Source: an uncultured archaeon (GTDB taxonomy: Archaea; Iainarchaeota; Iainarchaeia; Iainarchaeales; Iainarchaeaceae). From it: a stretch of 32,000 nucleotides of DNA. The translations under genes and the position numbers were made by a program. The stretch spans positions 3,012-35,011 of the forward strand of contig CAZNZM010000002.1 of NCBI GenBank assembly GCA_964577555.1, read 5' to 3'. The notes below the pieces were generated by a model. That model had not been told where the DNA came from, made no database searches, and worked only from the letters and a program-made list of their open reading frames with translations. Below are positions 1 through 20,093 of the stretch, one piece after another. Every line of letters starts with the position of its first letter. The first letter of the stretch is position 1.

Positions 1-175
1 TATGGGCTCTGTTGTTGCAGGTTTTGGTGTTTGAGTGGGTGGTTTTTCTGGTTTTTTGGTGTTAAGTTGTGTTGTTGGTTGTGTTGGTGTTGTTTGTGGG
101 TTTTGTGGTGTTTTGCTTATTATGGGCTCTGTTGTTGCAGGTTTTGGTGTTTGAGTGGGTGGTTTTTCTGGTTTT
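1..175. repeat. Direct repeat: 55 nt identical (1-55 = 121-175) at 120-nt spacing
   Basis: tatgggctctgttgttgcaggttttggtgtttgagtgggtggtttttctggtttt occurs at 1-55 and again at 121-175. A 120-nt period equals 40 codons of the open minus-strand frame. The window edge may hide further copies. Confidence 0.9.
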
Positions 176-3230: not shown

Positions 3231-4001
3231 ATGCCTACTAGTGTCAAATTTGTGTCCAATAAAAAATTCAAGGATGCTGTGCTTTTTACAGGTTTGCCTG
3301 GAATTGGGCTTGTTGGCAAGATTTGTGTGGATTATTTGCTTAAGCAATTCAAGGCTGAAAAGGTTGCTGAAATTCATTCTGATTTTTTTCCGCCAAGCGT
3401 TCAAACTGAAAATGGCATTGTTGAAATGATAAAGGATGAAATTTATTATTTGGATTTTGGTGGCAAGGATTTTCTTTTTATTTCAGGCCCTATTCAACCG
3501 ACATTGGATGGGCGGTATTCGTCAATGCAGGAGCATTTTGAATTTTCAAGAAGCATAATCGAGTCGTTGAAAGGCAGAGGGCTTGGCGAGATTTGTACTT
3601 TAGCAGGCATAAATATTGGGGACAAGCGAATGCAAGTAGAGCCGCGCGTGGTGGTTGCTGCTACTAATAAAAAAAAGCTTGAAGAGTGGAAAAAGCTTGG
3701 AGCGGTTTCCGACAGGCCGATTGGAATGATAAGCGGCGTTGCCGGTTTGCTTTTGGGGATTGGCAAAGAAGAGGGGATTGAAGGCGCTTGTCTTATGGGT
3801 GAAACGAATGCTCGTATGATTTATGGCGATCCAGGAGCCGCCAAAAAAGTGGTTGAAATACTAATAAAGCGTTATGGGTTCAAAGTTGATATGACTTCCA
3901 TGGATCGAGAAGCAAAGGAAATTGAAAAAGCGTTTGCCGAACTCAACAAGCAATTTGAAGAACACGAGGACACTCCTGCTCATTTATCGTATGTCAGATA
4001 A
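3231..4001 (+). CDS. PAC2-family proteasome-assembly-chaperone-like protein (COG1938-type)
   Basis: 256 aa. FTGLPGIGLVGKI near the N-terminus and ISGVAGLLLG are typical of the family. It sits downstream of eS27 and aIF2-alpha, as in the known archaeal superoperon. Confidence 0.6.
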   Translation: MPTSVKFVSNKKFKDAVLFTGLPGIGLVGKICVDYLLKQFKAEKVAEIHSDFFPPSVQTENGIVEMIKDEIYYLDFGGKDFLFISGPIQPTLDGRYSSMQEHFEFSRSIIESLKGRGLGEICTLAGINIGDKRMQVEPRVVVAATNKKKLEEWKKLGAVSDRPIGMISGVAGLLLGIGKEEGIEGACLMGETNARMIYGDPGAAKKVVEILIKRYGFKVDMTSMDREAKEIEKAFAELNKQFEEHEDTPAHLSYVR

Positions 4002-4110
4002 TTAAAGCTTGCGTAATATTTTTTTAATTTTTTTGTGTCTGAAAGAAAATTTTAATATCGTGTATACGATAATTTTCAAGATTTTTTCTAATCAGTTTTT
4101 TGTAGAAAAT

Positions 4111-4830
4111 TTGTTTTTTTTGGTGAGCCGATTTTGTTTTTTTTTTCTTATTTTTTTTTGGTTTGTTTTTTTTTGTTTGTTTTTTTTTGGCGAGCCATTT
4201 TTTTGTCATTTTTCTTTTTTTTTTGAATTCTTTTTTTTTGTCAATTATTTTTTTAATTGGATTTTGTTTTTTTTTGTTTGTTTTTTTGTGAATTCTTTTT
4301 TTTTGTGAGCTGTTTTTTTTATTTTTTTTATTTTTTTTTGTTTTTTTGCAAGCTGTTTTTTTTATGGAATTTGTTTTTTTTTAGCAAGCCAATTTTTTTT
4401 GAATTATTTTTTTGATTTTTGTTTTTTTTTGGCGAGCCGATTTTGTTTTTTTTCTTATTTTTTTTGATTTTTGTTTTTTTTTGGCGAGCCATTTTTTTGT
4501 CATTTTTCTTTTTTTTTTTGAATTCTTTTTTTTTGTCAATTATTTTTTTAATTGGATTTTGTTTTTTTTGTTATTTTTTTTTGTGAATTTGTTTTTTTTT
4601 TCGTTTTAGTTATTTTTTTTTGTTTTTGTTGGTTTGGTTTTTTTTTGCAAGCTGTTTTTTTTTATGGAATTTGTTTTTTTTTAGCAAGCCAATTTTTTTT
4701 TGAATTATTTTTTTTGATTTTTTTTTTTTTTTGGCGAGCCGATTTTGTTTTTTTTTCTTATTTTTTTTTGGTTTGTTTTTTTTTGTTTGTTTTTTTTTGG
4801 CGAGCCATTTTTTTTGGGCAATTTTATTTT
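4111..4830 (+). repeat. Higher-order tandem array, unit ~302-309 bp, ~2.3 copies, built of T-tracts and GYRAGCY cores
   Basis: GG(T/C)GAGCCGATTTTG occurs at 4122, 4431 and 4733. GGCGAGCCATTTTTTTGTCATTTTTC occurs at 4189 and 4483, with a third copy at 4799 that diverges after the T-run. GCAAGCTG..ATGGAATTTG..TTAGCAAGCCAATTTTTTTTGAATTA occurs at 4348 and 4647. Copies differ mainly in T-run lengths. Confidence 0.9.
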
Positions 4831-4911
4831 TTTATTTTTTGTCAGACATTTTTTTGATATTTTTTTAATTGAGTTTGATTGAAATTCGTTTTTTTTTGTT
4901 TTAATATTCTC

Positions 4912-6174
4912 CTATTTTTTTTGTGGTTGGTTGTTGGTTGGGCATTTTGTTTCGTATTTCATTTCTTTACTTATTTTTTCAAATTCTTTTTCGTTTTTGC
5001 ATATTATTGGTTTTCCGTATTTTCCTCCACCGCCAGGAATATAAAGCACTAGTCCTTTTCTGAATGCTGTTATCATTTCTCCTATTTCTTTGTCTTCTTT
5101 CATTAGTTCTGCTTCTGGGGTTTCTGTCAGTATTTTTATTTCGTTTCCGAATTTTTCCACGAGTTCCATCCATTTTGCTTGGACTTTTTTTGTTTCGATT
5201 CCTTTTGAGTTTGTTGCTGTTTGGATTATTTCTGCAAGTGGCAGCATGTATTGGTATGGTGGCCTAAATTTTGGGTGTTTTTCTTGTTCCGTGTCTTTGA
5301 GCATCATTATTCTGTCCATTACTCCGCGTTTAATGTCTGTTTTGCATTTTATGCATTTCCATTTTAGTGTTTCCGCTTCTTTCAGCGAATATTTTTTGTG
5401 GCATTCTGAGCAAGCCGTGCAGTGGTATTTTCCTTCTTTTGGATTAAGTCCTGCGTTGAGTGTTATTAATTTGTCTTCGCGTTCGTTGAATGCTTTTTTT
5501 AGTGATTTGAAATCTGGTTTTTCCATTTTTATTTTTATGAATTCTCTGCCAATGCGGTGTGGCCAAGGTGAATGTGCGTCAGAACTTGTGAGGAATGCGT
5601 ATGAATGGTTTTCTGAAATCATGTCCGCCATGTTTGTGTCTGCGCTTAATCCCAATTCTATGAATTTGAGTTCTTTGTGCATGTTGCCGTATGCTGTTTT
5701 GAGTGAGTCGTAGAATGCATAAATGCCTGTGTATGGCGTGAATGAGTGTGCAGGTCCGAATATTCCACCAGAGTCGTGTATTTTTTCAGCCAATGCTTCT
5801 GGGGTTAGTTTGATGTATGGTCTGCCGCACATTATGCAGTCAAGGTTGCCGTGTGGCAAAAGTTTTTCTCTTAATTCTAAAGCGTTTTCAATTGCTGGGA
5901 GGTAGAAGAGGTGGTGTATTCCGTTTTTGTCTTCTGCTTCTCCGCCTATTATGTAATTGCAGTTTTGGTTTTTGTCTGCATAAACCCCGTTTTCTGTTTC
6001 TATTATGTTTTGTTTGACGTGTTTGAGCCATTCTTTGTGCAGTATGTCGCCTGTTGATAGCACTTCTATTCCTTTGAGTTTTGCTTGTTCGGATAAGATG
6101 GGTATTTCCATGTTTTTGCTTACCCCTCCAGCGTATTTTCCATGTATTTGCAGGTCTAAAACGAATTCGCGCAT
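4912..6174 (-). CDS. Endonuclease Q-like protein (PHP-domain phosphoesterase with Zn ribbon, COG1379-type)
   Basis: 420 aa. Blocks recalled from EndoQ are present: GPAHSFTPYT, ELGLSADTNMADMI, SDAHSPWPHRIGREF, NAGLNPKEGKYHCTACSEC...KWKCIKC, RGVMDRI, PLAEII, IPGGGGKYG. Confidence 0.75.
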   Translation of the reverse strand: MREFVLDLQIHGKYAGGVSKNMEIPILSEQAKLKGIEVLSTGDILHKEWLKHVKQNIIETENGVYADKNQNCNYIIGGEAEDKNGIHHLFYLPAIENALELREKLLPHGNLDCIMCGRPYIKLTPEALAEKIHDSGGIFGPAHSFTPYTGIYAFYDSLKTAYGNMHKELKFIELGLSADTNMADMISENHSYAFLTSSDAHSPWPHRIGREFIKIKMEKPDFKSLKKAFNEREDKLITLNAGLNPKEGKYHCTACSECHKKYSLKEAETLKWKCIKCKTDIKRGVMDRIMMLKDTEQEKHPKFRPPYQYMLPLAEIIQTATNSKGIETKKVQAKWMELVEKFGNEIKILTETPEAELMKEDKEIGEMITAFRKGLVLYIPGGGGKYGKPIICKNEKEFEKISKEMKYETKCPTNNQPQKK

Positions 6175-6197
6175 TGATGATTTTTTGCCAAGACATT

Positions 6198-6207
6198 GTT
6201 TTAAATT
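6198..6207. promoter_or_regulatory. Candidate shared TATA element GTTTTAAATT in the 68-bp divergent spacer
   Basis: It lies -24..-33 from the EndoQ ATG (6174, minus strand) and -36..-45 from the methyltransferase ATG (6243, plus strand). Near-palindromic A/T core. Confidence 0.3.
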
Positions 6208-6242
6208 GGTTGCAGGAGGGTTTTTTTGTTGTAGGCGTTTTT

Positions 6243-6869
6243 ATGTCAACTGAATTTGATTTAGGACATACAATGAGAATAACTGGCGAGTCTAAAAGTG
6301 AGTGGTTGAAAAGAAAGTTTGAGACAATGGTGTTGCCGCAGTTTAGGGTGGTTAGCCAAAATTCTGTGCTTGATGGAAAAAGAGTTCTTGAGTTTGGTTG
6401 TTTTGCAGGTCAATTGACTGATTATATTAACAAAAATTCTTCAGCTAAGTGTGTTGGGCTTGACGTAAAATTGCTTGAAAAGAGAAAGGGTTTGTATGAG
6501 TATGATGGGAAAAGAATTCCTTTCAATGATGGAGAATTTGATATTGTCACTTGTTTTGAAGTGATTGAACATGTTTTTAATCCTGTTGAAACTTTGGCTG
6601 AAATAAACAGGGTGTTGAAAAAGGGCGGGGTGCTTTATATTACTGCGCCGAACAAGTTTTGGGTTTCGTTGGGTTGGGGGCATAACAGTCTTGAAATGCA
6701 TTTGCGTCATATTTTTCGTAAAAATCCTGATTGTGTCAATCTTTTTTCTTGGTGGGAAATAACTAAACTGCTTGAAGATGCTGGTTTTAATTGGGTTTCT
6801 TTGCAAAAAAAGCCTTTTTGGTTGTCGCGCGGCTGGTTGCTTAAATGCGTGAAAATAAAAAATAAATAA
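6243..6869 (+). CDS. Class I SAM-dependent methyltransferase
   Basis: ORF 6081..6869 trimmed to the ATG at 6243 (MSTEFDL), because the upstream part overlaps the EndoQ start. Motifs: VLEFGCFAGQLT (degenerate motif I), FDIVTCFEVIEHV, LKKGGVLYITAPN. Confidence 0.7.
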   Translation: MSTEFDLGHTMRITGESKSEWLKRKFETMVLPQFRVVSQNSVLDGKRVLEFGCFAGQLTDYINKNSSAKCVGLDVKLLEKRKGLYEYDGKRIPFNDGEFDIVTCFEVIEHVFNPVETLAEINRVLKKGGVLYITAPNKFWVSLGWGHNSLEMHLRHIFRKNPDCVNLFSWWEITKLLEDAGFNWVSLQKKPFWLSRGWLLKCVKIKNK

Positions 6870-6923
6870 GCATTAATATTGTGTTGGTTGTATTTTTTTG
6901 GGTTTGGAAAAAAAGGTTTTTTT

Positions 6924-7571
6924 ATGGTAAAGTTTACTGAGACGCAAAGAAAAATAGCTGTGTTGCTTTTACATGCTTCTAAAACTGCTGATGACATTTC
7001 AAAGCAGTTGAATTTGCCTTTGATTGAGGTTAATGATGCTTTGAAGGATATGTTGAAGCTTAAGGTTGTGAAGCTTGATGGTTATCCGCCTAAGTATTCT
7101 TTGATGGAAAGTATTGTTGAAGCCGTGAAAAGGCGAAAGGAGTTGCAGGAAAAGGATCCTTTTGAATTGAGGTTGAAAGCCATTATTGAGTTTAAGGCTG
7201 TGGAAGAAAGTCTTCTTGAAAAAATGGTTTCCGAAATAGAGGCAAAGTTGCGCAAGGAAAAGAATTTTACTATTTATGAGATTTACCGGGCCAAGCCTAT
7301 TAAGGAAGGGACTCATTATAGCGCTTATTTGGAGGTTAATTTCAGTGTTGCTGATTTTTCAACTTTGGTTCAATTCATGTATTATTATGGGCCTGTTTCT
7401 GTTGAGGTCATAAAGCCGCAAAAAATAGTTATTTCAATGGACGATCTTCAGGATGGGCTTATGGACATGGCTGAAATGATTCAAGCTTATAATGCTTCCA
7501 TGCTTAAATACATGGAAAAGGAAGAGCTTGAAGAATTCGCAAAAAACCTTTACAAGCCAAGCCAGGATTGA
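6924..7571 (+). CDS. Hypothetical protein with N-terminal winged-helix-like domain
   Basis: ORF 6879..7571 trimmed to the ATG at 6924 (MVKFTETQRKIAVLLLHASKTADDISKQLNLPLIEVNDALKDMLKLKVVKL). The C-terminal domain is not recognised. Confidence 0.5.
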   Translation: MVKFTETQRKIAVLLLHASKTADDISKQLNLPLIEVNDALKDMLKLKVVKLDGYPPKYSLMESIVEAVKRRKELQEKDPFELRLKAIIEFKAVEESLLEKMVSEIEAKLRKEKNFTIYEIYRAKPIKEGTHYSAYLEVNFSVADFSTLVQFMYYYGPVSVEVIKPQKIVISMDDLQDGLMDMAEMIQAYNASMLKYMEKEELEEFAKNLYKPSQD

Positions 7572-7851: not shown

Positions 7852-10800
7852 ATGAAAGGATTCAACGTAAAGAAATTGGCTGCAATTGCAACCGGCGCAG
7901 CTTTGCTCGGTACTGCAGTGGCTCCAATTGTCTCAGCAATAACTGTTACTAAAGGAGACATCTATAATTCTGATGGTACTCCAAAAGTCAACATTGTTGT
8001 TGGATCTCAGGCCGCGGCTTCAGACGGTGTCTGGGCTGGAAATTTGGCGGCAAAGATAGCTGAAAAAGCTACTACAACAAAGCAAGTTAAGGTCTCGCTT
8101 GGTAGCGGTGCGGAAGGCAGCGAACCAACAGCTAATTTGGATCTTTCAGATCTTGTTGTTGACGTTACTATAGGCGGAAAAGTGACAATTAGCGGTCAAA
8201 GCAAGAGGTATTCAGAGTATATGAGCTCTGTTTCTAACTCTAAAGAAGTAAATTCAGCTCTTGACAATACAAACGATTCAAACGCTTTGACAGATTCGAC
8301 TTTGCCGTTCTTGTTCAACAACAGCTCTATGAGGGCTAAAGTTGACAATAATTCTTCAACCATTACGGTTCAAGAAAAAGTCGGGGTAAATGTTGACGCA
8401 AAGTTTTCAACAGACCAAGACTTGAAGGATTTGGTTGCCACAATAGGCACAAATGATATGACTTATCAAGTCAATTTTGGTGGCACCACCGGAGTGAATT
8501 TGGGAACAACCAACTTTACTGATGGGTCAGACGACGATGTTGAGGTGGCTTTCTTTGGAGAGAAATATAAGTTGAACGAAGCCGTCTTGACAGGACAAAA
8601 AAAGGTAAAATTAGTTAAATCCAGCGCAAAAACATCATTCAATGAAGGCGAGGTTATTGAAGGCCTTGTTGGTGATGGAATGTATGCTGGAAAAGATGTT
8701 AAAGTGAAAGTTGTTCAAGTCGTGTCAACAGGTCCATCGGCAAGTTCTTATCAAGCAACTTTCCAATTATTGGATAGCGAGGGCAATATAATTGATGTCC
8801 AAACAGTAGGCTCTGGAAACAATTTGAGGGATTACTTCAAGGACAGCAAAGACGATTATGCTCTCTCAAGCAATGTGTATATTGATACAATTGCAACAGG
8901 TGCAACATCAGGCGCTGGCTATGTTGAAGTAACCAAAGGCTCTGATACGCTTGAACTTTGGGATACTAAAATCTACCCATACAAGAGCGACTATACAGGG
9001 ACAAAACCTTATTCGGTTTCAATAGGCACTAATGATAACTATTTGAAGTCAATCAAAATTGTGAACACTGCTGAGAAGTGGGAAGAAACCAAAACAGGTT
9101 ATGACCTTGGTGCTCTTTACCCTACCAACTCTGGCCAGTCCTTGACCGGCAAAACAGGAACAACAGCAGTATTTGGGCAATCTTGGCCTGATGGAACCCT
9201 TGGAAAAGGTTACTTCAAGGTTGAGTTCCTCGGATTCCAAGGAAGCGAGGAAAGAACAACCACTATGATTGGCAAGTCAACTGAAAATCTGCCATCAGGT
9301 TCAACTGGTGGAATAACATTGTATGCCGACGACGACACCAAAATGGAAATTCCGTTCTACATCCAAGTTGATGATTCAAACGGCTCGTTTGAATTCATGC
9401 AAAAACCATATTCAGTGTTTTATGACTTTGGTTCAGGCGGAAAAACAGGGACTTACGACGTGAACGTTGTTGTCACATCAGGCGACTACGTGAACGGCAG
9501 ACAGTGGACGGTTTCAGCTGATACTATTGGCTCTGCTGACGTTAACATAACTGTTGGTTCTACCACCCACAGTAATAAACAAACAGGCTTTATTTTCCAA
9601 GTCGAAGATGTAAATTATATGATAGTAGATGCTAACACAGCGACTAACAAGACAACAATCGCTGTTGACACCGCTGTTGAGTTGTTCTATGGTAATGTGT
9701 CTGATGACGCGAGTTCAAAGAATGCGGCTACTGCTGTATTCAACACAACCAGTGGAACATATCAAACAAAAGGGGCTTATGGTAGAATCCTTTTGTCAAA
9801 CAATGCAGCGTTTGACATAAATGGAACTACTGTTGGTCTTTACGGCACCGACAACCAAAGAAAGATTTATTACGTGCCAAAGTATAACGGCAACGACTTT
9901 TACTTGTTGCTTGAGGCACAGCAATTAAACAAAGACAAGTCAGGGCTACAAAATGGCCATAACTTGTACTTCTTGGGTACAAGCTTGCCGGTAGATACTT
10001 CATATACTGAAGTAAAAGGCGTATCCGCCAACTATTATTTAGGTAACATTGGTGGTGACACAACTTTAGGCTCTACTGCAAGGCAATACGGCTATTATGT
10101 GCCTAAAACAACTGACTTCAATTCAGCAGCTGCATACTCTGCAAGCGACGCATACTTCGTTGCAGAATTCAGATACATTAGCGCTATAACAAGCGATTCA
10201 AACACAGACATATACATCGATACTTCGAAGGGAGCACCTCTCGGTACATTCCCGATACAGAACTTGACAGGATACTCTAGCGCAGTAAGTTATAATTCTG
10301 ACGCTATTGTATTAAAGCCTGGTTCCGATGCGGCTTACTTCCAATCGATGTATACGGATTCAGGCTCTAAATTTTCAGTGACCAACGACGACGTCACTTT
10401 GAGTTCGCCTCAAAGAGCGGAAAAAGTTGAAGTTGTTGTCTACGGCACTGAATTGCAGAGAACTGTTGAAGGCGAAAAAGTCAGTTTGAAAGAAGGTGAA
10501 ACAAAAGAATTGCCTTCAGGCACAAAGGTGACTTTCAGCGGAGTCAAGGGAGGAGCTTGTAAAGTAAGCGCAGGCGAACCTGGACAACCAGGTATTTGTA
10601 AAGCGGAACCATCTTCTTACGTTGTTCCGGCTCCAATTAGAGGAAACCTCGTATTCCTTGACACGGAAAGCCCGGCAGGAACCAACATAATTGTTGGTGG
10701 TTGGGCAGTCAACAAAATGGCTGAAAAAACCAAGTCAAAGCTCGTAGCAGCAGGCGACATGGTTGCCGAAGTTGACGCAGCAAGCGGCGACATATACGTT

Positions 10801-10872
10801 GCAGGCTATACTGCTGAAGACACCGGAAGGGCAGTAAAAGAACTCATAGACGCAATAGATGCATTGCAATGA
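7852..10872 (+). CDS. S-layer (surface layer) protein precursor
   Basis: 1006 aa. Signal peptide MKGFNVKKLAAIATGAALLGTAVAPIVSA. The mature protein is T/S/N/G/D/V-rich, acidic and nearly Cys-free. The C-terminal block NIIVGGWAVNKMAEKT...IYVAGYTAEDTGRAVKELIDAI resembles the conserved end of methanogen-type S-layer proteins. Strong SD and a double-hairpin terminator flank it. Confidence 0.75.
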   Translation: MKGFNVKKLAAIATGAALLGTAVAPIVSAITVTKGDIYNSDGTPKVNIVVGSQAAASDGVWAGNLAAKIAEKATTTKQVKVSLGSGAEGSEPTANLDLSDLVVDVTIGGKVTISGQSKRYSEYMSSVSNSKEVNSALDNTNDSNALTDSTLPFLFNNSSMRAKVDNNSSTITVQEKVGVNVDAKFSTDQDLKDLVATIGTNDMTYQVNFGGTTGVNLGTTNFTDGSDDDVEVAFFGEKYKLNEAVLTGQKKVKLVKSSAKTSFNEGEVIEGLVGDGMYAGKDVKVKVVQVVSTGPSASSYQATFQLLDSEGNIIDVQTVGSGNNLRDYFKDSKDDYALSSNVYIDTIATGATSGAGYVEVTKGSDTLELWDTKIYPYKSDYTGTKPYSVSIGTNDNYLKSIKIVNTAEKWEETKTGYDLGALYPTNSGQSLTGKTGTTAVFGQSWPDGTLGKGYFKVEFLGFQGSEERTTTMIGKSTENLPSGSTGGITLYADDDTKMEIPFYIQVDDSNGSFEFMQKPYSVFYDFGSGGKTGTYDVNVVVTSGDYVNGRQWTVSADTIGSADVNITVGSTTHSNKQTGFIFQVEDVNYMIVDANTATNKTTIAVDTAVELFYGNVSDDASSKNAATAVFNTTSGTYQTKGAYGRILLSNNAAFDINGTTVGLYGTDNQRKIYYVPKYNGNDFYLLLEAQQLNKDKSGLQNGHNLYFLGTSLPVDTSYTEVKGVSANYYLGNIGGDTTLGSTARQYGYYVPKTTDFNSAAAYSASDAYFVAEFRYISAITSDSNTDIYIDTSKGAPLGTFPIQNLTGYSSAVSYNSDAIVLKPGSDAAYFQSMYTDSGSKFSVTNDDVTLSSPQRAEKVEVVVYGTELQRTVEGEKVSLKEGETKELPSGTKVTFSGVKGGACKVSAGEPGQPGICKAEPSSYVVPAPIRGNLVFLDTESPAGTNIIVGGWAVNKMAEKTKSKLVAAGDMVAEVDAASGDIYVAGYTAEDTGRAVKELIDAIDALQ

Positions 10873-10959: not shown

Positions 10960-11545
10960 CTTGTTTTTCTTAATTTTTTGCAATTTTTTTTGAAATTTGT
11001 TTTATTTTTTTTGCTAGCCGTTTTTTTGTTTATTGTTTTTTTATTTTGAAAACTTGTTTTTTTTTGCAAGCTTTTTTTATCGTTTTTTTGGCATTTTTTT
11101 GTTTTTTTTTGAAGCCGATTTTTTTGTATTTTATTTTTTGTTTGGTTTTGTTTTTGTGTGCCTAATTTTTTTTAGCCATTTATTTTTTTGTCTTTTTGCG
11201 AGTCGTTTTTTTGGTCTATTTATTTTTTTATTTTTTTTACCAGGCATTTTTTTTGAAATTTGTTTTATTTTTTTTGTTTATTATTTTTTTGTTTTTTTAG
11301 TCAGTTTTTTTTGGCGTTTTTCTTTGTTTTTTTTTGCGAGCCGTTTTTTTTATTTTGCTTTTTTGTTGTTTGTTTTTTTTGGTGAGCCATTTTTTTGTCT
11401 TGTTTTTGCGAGCCAATTTTTTTTAGGCGTTTTTTTTGTTTTTTTAGCACAGTTTTTTTAGTTTTGATTTTTGTTTTTAGCCATTTTTTTGGGTTTTTAA
11501 GCATTTTTTTTAAGGTGTTTTTTTTTGCGGGTTTTCTTTTTTTAA
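10960..11545 (+). repeat. T-tract/GYRAGCY intergenic array (degenerate, ~15 cores)
   Basis: Cores: GCTAGCCG 11013, GCAAGCT 11066, GAAGCCGA 11111, TAGCCA 11173, GCGAGTCG 11198, GCGAGCCG 11336, GGTGAGCCA 11381, GCGAGCCAA 11408, TAGCCA 11478. Each is flanked by T6-T9 runs. There is also an internal 31-nt perfect repeat (10983-11013 = 11246-11276). Confidence 0.85.
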
Positions 11546-11568
11546 GAGTTTTGGGGTGTTATTGTTTG

Positions 11569-16769: not shown

Positions 16770-16905
16770 ATGTTTTTTTTGTTTTGGCCCGCTTTTTTTT
16801 GGGTTGTTGTTTGTTTTTTATATTTTTTTTGCAACTCATTTTTTTTTGAGTTTGTTTTTTGCAAGCCAAGTTTTTTTGAATTTATTTGTTTTTTCTTGGC
16901 TTTTA
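16770..16905 (+). repeat. T-tract/GYRAGCY intergenic array
   Basis: Cores GGCCCGC 16786, GCAACTCA 16831 and GCAAGCCAAGTTTTTTTGAATTTA 16861 (compare 4384 and 4684). It lies between divergent gene starts (aRF1 minus, pyrH plus). Confidence 0.75.
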
Positions 16906-19879: not shown

Positions 19880-20093
19880 CATTTTTTTTGTTTTGGCGAG
19901 CCGTCTTTGGCAATCATATTTTTAATTTAAATTTTTTTGTCTTTGTTGGTTTGGTTTTTGTGTGTTTTTTTTGTTGTTTTGTGAGATGTTTTTTGGTATT
20001 TTTTTTATTTTTCGTGTGTTTTTTTGTTTTTGTGTGGCAATTTTTTTTAGTTAATTTTGTTTGTATTTTGGCTTGGTTTTGCAAGTTGTTTTT
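19880..20093 (+). repeat. T-tract/GYRAGCY intergenic array
   Basis: Cores GGCGAGCCG 19895, GTGAGATG 19981 and GCAAGTTG 20081. It lies between two minus-strand genes. Confidence 0.75.

Follow-up and report, generated by a model that had tools for sequence, protein, structure and literature searches.

The smallest element to which the termination factor aCPSF1 binds in Methanococcus maripaludis consists of two U4 tracts within 18 nt, and additional tracts result in stronger termination of transcription (PMC8716108). Strand-specific base composition was in turn described for Ca. Chazhemtobacterium aquaticus Ch65, whose genome exhibits a G/C disparity without an A/T disparity and for which no repeat arrays were reported (PMC7143001). 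Literature searches on families of oligo-T or A-tract arrays in archaea revealed no described family. In this work, we analyzed such an array, located in a convergent intergenic spacer of an uncultured archaeon (assembly GCA_964577555.1) within a stretch of 32,000 nucleotides, hereafter referred to as the window (C2:3012-35011, where C2 is one of the contigs, designated C1, C2 and so on). The host genome is a reduced, DPANN genome of 979 kb in 15 contigs (95.5% complete, 0.24% contamination), and its gene content is archaeal. Between a PAC2-family gene and the gene encoding endonuclease Q (EndoQ), positions 4111-4815 are occupied by 2.3 head-to-tail copies of a unit of 295-309 bp. This repeat is probably the result of a recent tandem block duplication within a non-coding, lineage-specific, fast-turnover array of satellite-like character, for which a polar stop of transcription would be a side effect.

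Structure of the tandem repeat

The stop codons of the PAC2 gene (3999-4001) and the EndoQ gene (4912-4914) delimit a convergent spacer of 910 bp, the very length given in the first-pass annotation, which had been made from the sequence alone. The whole oligo-T array, delimited by run clustering, lies on the plus strand at 4082-4922 (C2:7093-7933) and has 841 bp with 51 runs of six or more T, which alternate with words of 1-22 nt containing G, A or C; its terminal T-run reaches into the KK codons at the 3' end of the EndoQ gene. Periodicities of 16, ~66 and ~300 bp are nested within this array. The last of them corresponds to the higher-order tandem repeat that the annotation had reported, and all six of its landmark coordinates proved exact: GG(T/C)GAGCCGATTTTG is found at 4122, 4431 and 4733, and GGCGAGCCATTTTTTT at 4189, 4483 and 4799.

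Tandem Repeats Finder placed the repeat at 4152-4785 (period 295, 2.1 copies, 88% matches, score 1010), a repeat search gave direct-repeat spacings of 295-301 bp in the array, and the MAFFT alignment distinguished two full copies and a partial third in an A-B-A-B-A layout, all on the plus strand. Copy 1 (4111-4419) is composed of A1 (4111-4198), B-left (4199-4289), B-mid (4290-4347) and B-right (4348-4419), and copy 2 (4420-4721) of A2 (4420-4492), B-left (4493-4584), B-mid (4585-4646) and B-right (4647-4721), while the partial copy 3 (4722 to ~4815) consists of A3 only, as the homology stops past GGCGAGCCA-T8.

The blocks differ strongly in their conservation. Between copies 1 and 2, B-left and B-right show 95.7% and 96.0% identity, respectively, whereas B-mid, with 71%, is at the background level. 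A stretch of 38 nt in B-mid of copy 2 (4610-4647) is 100% identical to C2:132724-132761, and this block is, to judge from the sequence, a patch that was replaced after the duplication. Paired blocks had been described as nearly identical apart from the T-run lengths, and indeed A1/A3, B-left and B-right together contain seven single-T indels versus about three substitutions, which is a signature of homopolymer slippage. With the conserved blocks at 96-97% identity, the proposed recent expansion is well founded.

Copy 3 is nearer to copy 1 than to copy 2, as had also been noticed (identities: A1/A3 96.6%, A1/A2 78%, A2/A3 82%). It was found that A2 carries a 15-nt deletion or replacement in its middle part, and that A3 has the 15-nt segment of A1; on the other hand, A3 and A2 have the C of GGCGAGCC in common, and therefore the T of A1 and the deletion of A2 may both be later changes. 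From this pattern the annotation had concluded that more than one duplication or conversion event took place. The multiplicity of events stands, as there were at least two later patches, but conversion is not required for the pattern of the A blocks.

It should be stressed that the repeat is more than shared low complexity. The local alignment of copy 1 with copy 2 scored 197, compared with 44.5 ± 11.6 (mean and standard deviation; maximum 95) for 400 random pairs of 300-bp pieces drawn from separate T-rich arrays of this genome (z = 13) and with a mean of 33 for copy 1 against shuffled copy 2. The claim would have lost its ground had the copies been no more alike than unrelated T-rich spacers are, which is not what the scores indicate. 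In blastn searches, copy 1 matched copy 2 with 367 bits (86.5% identity over 319 columns), and any other locus with at most 148 bits and 77% identity.

Support from independent assemblies

Short reads are unable to span 300-bp homopolymer repeats, and the repeat could thus be an artefact of assembly, with a different true copy number or block order. Exact-protein look-ups identified the locus of the same strain in three assemblies, one of which spans it: a 149-kb contig of JGI 3300037501 differs from the window by three bases (4723, 4733 and 4757). All three fall exactly at the copy 2/copy 3 junction, which is a point in favor of an artefact, as is the breaking of the two other assemblies within this array. 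Contigs of JGI 3300043177 and Logan SRR12686701 end inside it, those coming from the left at 4609 and 4167 and those coming from the right at 4775 and 4785, and arrays are found at many contig ends and beside N gaps.

Against this, JGI 3300043177, an independent sample, reproduces 3951-4609 with no gaps and three mismatches, all in the last 27 nt, and so covers copy 1, its junction with copy 2 and the first 190 nt of copy 2, all free of indels. Moreover, the fixed patches in A2 and B-mid distinguish copies 1 and 2 and therefore give the assembler unique paths, and two other contigs confirm 4775-4959; both outer junctions are supported. Overlaps between the assemblies are identical, including every T-run length, save for three mismatches at the end of one contig. 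Independent confirmation is available for copy 1, for its junction with copy 2 and for both outer junctions; the copy 2/copy 3 junction and the exact copy number come from one assembly. Considering all of the above, an artefactual origin of the repeat is very improbable.

Most contig ends and scaffold gaps of the genome coincide with arrays (e.g., C1:1-417, C10:1-638, both ends of C12, both ends of C14 and C3:5737-5836). The presence of module copies (described below) at contig ends and of arrays flanking most N gaps indicates that the fragmentation of the assembly is mainly due to the arrays, whose copy numbers are probably set too low throughout the genome.

A genome-wide family of oligo-T arrays

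What the first-pass annotation had missed is that the spacer holds the longest member of a genome-wide family of oligo-T arrays, that modules of this member are dispersed, and that the same gene junction is short in relatives. Clustering of runs of T≥6 or A≥6 revealed 172 strand-polarised oligo-T arrays with a total length of 39 kb, i.e., 4% of the genome. The mode of the T-run length is 8 genome-wide (742 runs of 7, 935 of 8, 328 of 9 and 50 of 10), the mode of the start-to-start spacing of T-runs across arrays is 15-16 bp, and among the 2274 words between T-runs 1282 are distinct. With five GCGAGCC words, T7-9 runs and a period of 16.5 bp, the array at 4082-4922 belongs to this family. In the window, a second large array (10974-11546), also with GCGAGCC words and T7-9 runs, separates an S-layer-like gene (7852-10872) from the plus-strand gene after it, and smaller arrays were found at ~16773-16894 and ~19965-20048.

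A genome-wide search with Tandem Repeats Finder ranked the repeat at 4152-4785 first among the long-period tandem repeats, 27 of which (out of 31) fall inside the arrays and hence within 4% of the DNA; block duplication is therefore the usual mode of array growth. The arrays also share sequence with one another. The plus-strand module of ~100 nt at 4181-4276, with its second copy at 4475-4569 and the structure GGCGAGCCA-T7-GTCA-T5-C-T10-GAATTC-T9-GTCAATTA-T7-AATTGGATTTTG, recurs with 88-98% identity in about ten other arrays, on C10, C1 (several), C14, C6, C4 (three) and C3, and all of the dispersed copies are in the local T polarity. Multi-word stretches of 50-170 nt are shared; in blocks of up to 174 nt the modules follow one another as they do here (C10:49-219, 88% identity), and the B-right part of the unit is found again at C3:42150-42349. 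A 23-nt signature of the module occurs eight times in this genome (G000), and a search of five relatives (G001-G004 and G021) did not recover it.

The orthologous junction in relatives

A PAC2 gene followed by a convergent EndoQ gene was found in 13 of the 19 loci of relatives examined. The length of the spacer between them is 0 bp in G010, 6 bp in G017, 18 bp in G011 and 89 bp in G007, and ~240-310 bp in three others, with no more than four T6+ runs in any of these junctions; these relatives have 44-54% GC and no strand bias. The 910-bp spacer, which had been considered very long for its surroundings, is thus unusually long also by comparison with its orthologs, and a junction of 0-18 bp in several relatives implies that ~0.9 kb of the spacer arose in this lineage.

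Two congeners were informative. In G001, whose PAC2 protein has only 69% identity, a T-run array of ~500 bp directly follows PAC2. Its words are different (GTC and GTTTGTC, with no GCGAGCC), its similarity to the array analyzed here is at the background level (at most 76%), and its T-runs have lengths of 6-9, mostly 6-8. In G002, there is no array behind PAC2 and EndoQ is relocated. A search with the pattern T8-N4-14-T8-N4-14-T8 gave 426 matches in G000, 53 in G001, 30 in G002, 34 in G021, and five or fewer in each of the 57 other genomes. By this comparison, the spacer is young in sequence, with an array architecture that is somewhat older or recurrent. A metagenome scan for closer relatives yielded only loci of 64-77% identity. 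The only genome of a different family (within the same order) with many T-run arrays is G021; its EndoQ matches are split between C39:148-768 and C59:1090-1806 (residues 200-406 and 1-237, respectively), which may reflect either a broken gene or just a fragmented assembly.

Transcription termination and placement of the arrays

The PAC2-family gene (3231-4001, plus strand; Pfam PF09754, E-value 1.4e-43) is the final gene of the run priS-GINS-S27e-eIF2alpha-PAC2, and its sense strand is the T-rich one. The convergent EndoQ gene (4912-6174, minus strand; similar to PfuEndoQ, PDB 5ZB8, E-value 2.8e-101) has the A-rich strand as its sense strand. Eighteen nt past the PAC2 stop codon and upstream of the array proper, the plus strand contains T7-AA-T7 (4019-4034), a putative terminator-like element of the ordinary archaeal type with two U-tracts, and 51 T-runs follow it, whereas the sense strand of EndoQ lacks T runs of five or more throughout the 910-bp spacer. 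An ortholog of aCPSF1 is encoded at C1:78217-80097 (TIGR03675, 843 bits versus a cut-off of 580 bits). As the U-tracts lie on the PAC2 strand only and aCPSF1 is present, a stop of transcription in one direction is to be expected, and the array should, as a predicted polar effect, stop transcription in the PAC2 direction only.

The placement of the arrays was analyzed for the whole genome on the basis of crude open reading frame (ORF)-based gene calls. Arrays were found in 29% of convergent spacers versus 10% of all others (odds ratio 3.6, p = 3e-8), and on the hyper-skewed contigs (see below) they occur between two T-sense genes in 9% of cases versus 19% between two A-sense genes (p = 0.04). 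Such placement fits arrays that are tolerated where no promoter or operon is cut and are harmful inside T-sense operons; it does not establish termination as the purpose of the arrays. On C2, C3 and C4, a T5+ run is located within 100 nt downstream of 28% of A-sense genes versus 79% of T-sense genes.

These data bear on a possible adaptive role of the array as a one-way barrier to transcription or as an insulator, maintained, and enlarged by duplication, because it stops the priS-PAC2 transcript very efficiently and spaces the convergent units. The array begins right behind the PAC2 stop codon and on the PAC2 sense strand, convergent spacers show a 3.6-fold enrichment of arrays, aCPSF1 is present and is known to act more strongly on more U-tracts, and EndoQ has no U-tract terminator; in addition, the rarity of T5+ runs downstream of A-sense genes makes read-through from that side a real problem in this genome. 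However, one or two U-tracts are enough, and ~50 of them are not known to add function in any archaeon studied. T7-AA-T7 already lies ahead of the array, and there is no general enrichment behind T-sense genes (arrays in 8% of >> spacers versus 12% of << spacers). The junctions of 0-18 bp in several relatives and the complete turnover of the sequence between congeners likewise speak against such a barrier. In our opinion, this explanation is unlikely.

Coding, RNA and DNA structure

A coding role of the array was rejected, since it contains only Phe-rich (plus strand) or Lys-rich (minus strand) low-complexity ORFs of at most 101 aa. A search of the array against Rfam gave no family at E ≤ 1, no hairpin terminators were found in it, promoter-like sites were not in excess, there were no inverted repeats of 20 nt or longer, and RNA folding gave z of about -2 for both strands. 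On these grounds, a structured RNA and a hairpin (bacterial-type) terminator were rejected as well. A CRISPR array was excluded by the lack of a constant repeat, the presence of homopolymer runs with varied words, and the wide spacing of the direct repeats; mobile repeats of the REP/BIME (repetitive extragenic palindrome/bacterial interspersed mosaic element) or MITE (miniature inverted-repeat transposable element) type were excluded by the absence of inverted repeats and hairpins and by the single orientation per contig.

The suggestion that phased T-tracts might curve the DNA did not hold. The Fourier spectrum of the array has its peak at 16.5 bp (power 6.43), versus 0.34 at 10.5 bp (~5% of the peak), and the family-wide peak is at 15-16.5 bp. 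With tracts ~1.5 helical turns apart, bends would cancel and no static bend would result. Poly(dA:dT) is stiff and disfavours wrapping, and the T7-9 tracts are very dense here, both of which would suit a spacer serving as curved or structural DNA for nucleoid organisation or protein exclusion. Yet the 10.5-bp phasing is missing, and a role of the duplex would need no strand polarity, which makes this explanation hardly credible.

Strand polarity of the arrays

The orientation of the arrays is uniform over long distances. There are 30 T-type and no A-type arrays on C2, 38 and none on C3, and none and 30 on C4, while C1 has 15 A-type arrays up to ~148 kb and nine T-type arrays from ~150 kb, with one flip. 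According to base composition, two compartments could be distinguished. The hyper-skewed one (C2, C3, C4 and C1:150-171 kb; ~440 kb) shows a four-fold T/A skew of +0.57 (up to 0.79) irrespective of gene direction and a GC skew of +0.23 relative to the array-T strand; in the part of C2 analyzed here, four-fold T is 0.54-0.67. Along C3, the T/A skew falls gradually from 0.67 to 0.25. The other compartment (C1:0-120 kb and C5-C8; 368 kb, 42 arrays) has a four-fold T/A skew of +0.01, a GC skew of -0.14 (-0.10 to -0.17, negative in every one of the five regions) and 65% of genes A-sense.

The explanation of the polarity by the T-rich strand as a whole was tried; it holds for C2-C4 and fails for C1:0-120 kb and C5-C8, where all arrays of each contig are in one orientation despite the lack of T/A skew. 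The persistence of array polarity in 368 kb without four-fold T/A skew is a new observation, and it means that local substitution bias is not enough to account for the polarity. Candidate factors setting it are fork direction, homology-driven copying among co-oriented arrays, and selection.

The switch on C1 was localized to C1:147988-151500 (3989-7500 of locus L044), where the four-fold T/A skew changes from -0.22 to +0.79 and the arrays from A-type to T-type. It adjoins a gene for a 292-aa tyrosine recombinase (Phage_integrase and SAM-like domains), a PRC-barrel gene and a tRNA gene. It was considered as a replication origin; the Orc1/Cdc6 genes lie away from it, at C1:~61 kb and C4:~16 kb.

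Uniform polarity over contigs of 50-150 kb, with one flip at C1:~150 kb, could be taken to mean that the arrays are replication-linked polar elements, either priming or fork sites or tracts expanding on one template, whose orientation marks the direction of the fork and whose duplication is growth of the site. Where the T/A skew is +0.01, the polarity is moreover coupled in five of five regions to a weak GC skew and to the 65% gene-strand bias. In the hyper-skewed compartment, however, the sign of the coupling to GC skew is reversed (+0.23), neither of the Orc1/Cdc6 genes is located at the polarity switch, no conserved word is shared between this genome and its congeners, and nothing ties the arrays to any replication protein. 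We regard a direct replication link of this kind as decidedly improbable.

A broader proposal is that the arrays constitute a chromosome-polarity system of one-directional signals, selected or mechanistically generated and tied to fork direction, with block duplications tuning their strength. Its possible roles include polar barriers for replication-transcription or convergent conflicts, and zones of lagging-strand priming. It draws on the orientation kept without T/A bias, the young modules in local polarity and the similar T-run length in G001, and we consider it rather unlikely.

Origin and significance of the repeat

Under the preferred reading, i.e., a recent duplication within a satellite-like array, the arrays would behave as satellite DNA, changing in size by unequal exchange or template slippage between internal repeats. 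From an A-B-A progenitor, a single misaligned exchange between its A blocks would yield the 2.3 copies, and two or more patch events would have come after this duplication. Arrays would further drift through single-T slippage and trade modules of 40-170 nt through homology-driven copying, and the same process may have expanded the PAC2/EndoQ junction from a length such as the 0-18 bp seen in several relatives to 910 bp. RNA synthesized in the PAC2 direction would carry ~50 consecutive U-tracts, i.e., a reiterated terminator/aCPSF1 signal, and RNA synthesized in the EndoQ direction would carry A-tracts only. Presumably near-neutral, arrays would accumulate where no promoter or operon is broken, above all between convergent genes. 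Beyond a polar stop of transcription, the repeat probably has no function of its own, and its ~50 U-tract stop signals are read as a tolerated by-product and not as the reason for its existence.

Several points weigh against this reading. The polarity of the arrays requires a directional process, or selection, in addition to base-substitution bias. Were the arrays truly neutral, a reduced genome of 1 Mb would not be expected to spend 4% of its length on filler. The T-run length peaks sharply at 7-9 in this genome, and G001, despite its other words, has runs of 6-9, mostly 6-8, which could reflect selection rather than a slippage equilibrium. Finally, the T-run lengths are identical where three assemblies from different samples overlap, and the array is thus not visibly hypervariable on that time scale.

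The repeat alone is an ordinary block duplication, and its value lies in being the clearest example in this genome of the expansion of a strand-locked oligo-T array. It is also a dated case, with a gene junction of 0-18 bp in several relatives and of 0.9 kb here. If the arrays are one-way stops, the locus is a natural test bed, in which convergent genes face ~50 versus no stop signals. The polarity without substitution skew, in turn, bears on the mitochondria-like strand asymmetry of this organism and on its replication.

Other features of the EndoQ gene and the window

The N-terminal motif of EndoQ is DLQIHG, where the HxH metal site would be expected. DLQxHG is present in all 13 EndoQ loci of relatives examined and is thus characteristic of the family rather than a fault peculiar to this genome. 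A defective EndoQ as the cause of the T-rich strand was rejected, because DLQxHG is found also in genomes with ~50% GC and no skew; the presence of EndoQ in 53 of the 61 genomes searched also counts against it as a lineage-specific cause. At the beginning of the window (1-175), just past an assembly gap, a 55-nt, almost pure G/T stretch (1-55) is repeated exactly at 121-175, and it is located in an open minus-strand frame running off the window.

Comparison with known systems

The nearest counterparts of the array are the archaeal oligo-U terminators acting with aCPSF1/FttA in Methanococcus maripaludis and Thermococcus (PMC8716108, PMC7515710), which likewise consist of sense-strand T runs (≥4-7) just downstream of a gene, and in which two tracts in ~18 nt match the ~16-nt spacing observed here. 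They differ in having 1-3 tracts in ~30 nt, as opposed to 51 over 841 bp with a duplicated 300-bp unit and modules distributed among ~170 loci; moreover, many members of this array family are not located behind a T-sense gene.

Prokaryotic minisatellites (variable number of tandem repeats loci) and the higher-order repeats of eukaryotic satellites resemble the array in their nested head-to-tail copies, growth (presumed for the array) by unequal exchange or slippage, differences in homopolymer length and fast turnover. What sets the present family apart is the strict one-strand polarity, the units built of homopolymers and words, and the ~170 dispersed loci trading modules. The REP/BIME, BOX and Staphylococcus aureus STAR elements are also intergenic and species-specific, consist of modules in varying order and are often found at the 3' ends of genes, but REP/BIME are palindromic and occur in both orientations, while here there are no inverted repeats and one orientation per contig.

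As regards base composition, Ca. Chazhemtobacterium aquaticus Ch65 (PMC7143001) and vertebrate mitochondrial DNA share with this genome a strand disparity that is independent of gene direction. In contrast to Ch65, the disparity found here is mainly T/A and concerns ~45% of the genome, and the polarity of the arrays persists outside of it.

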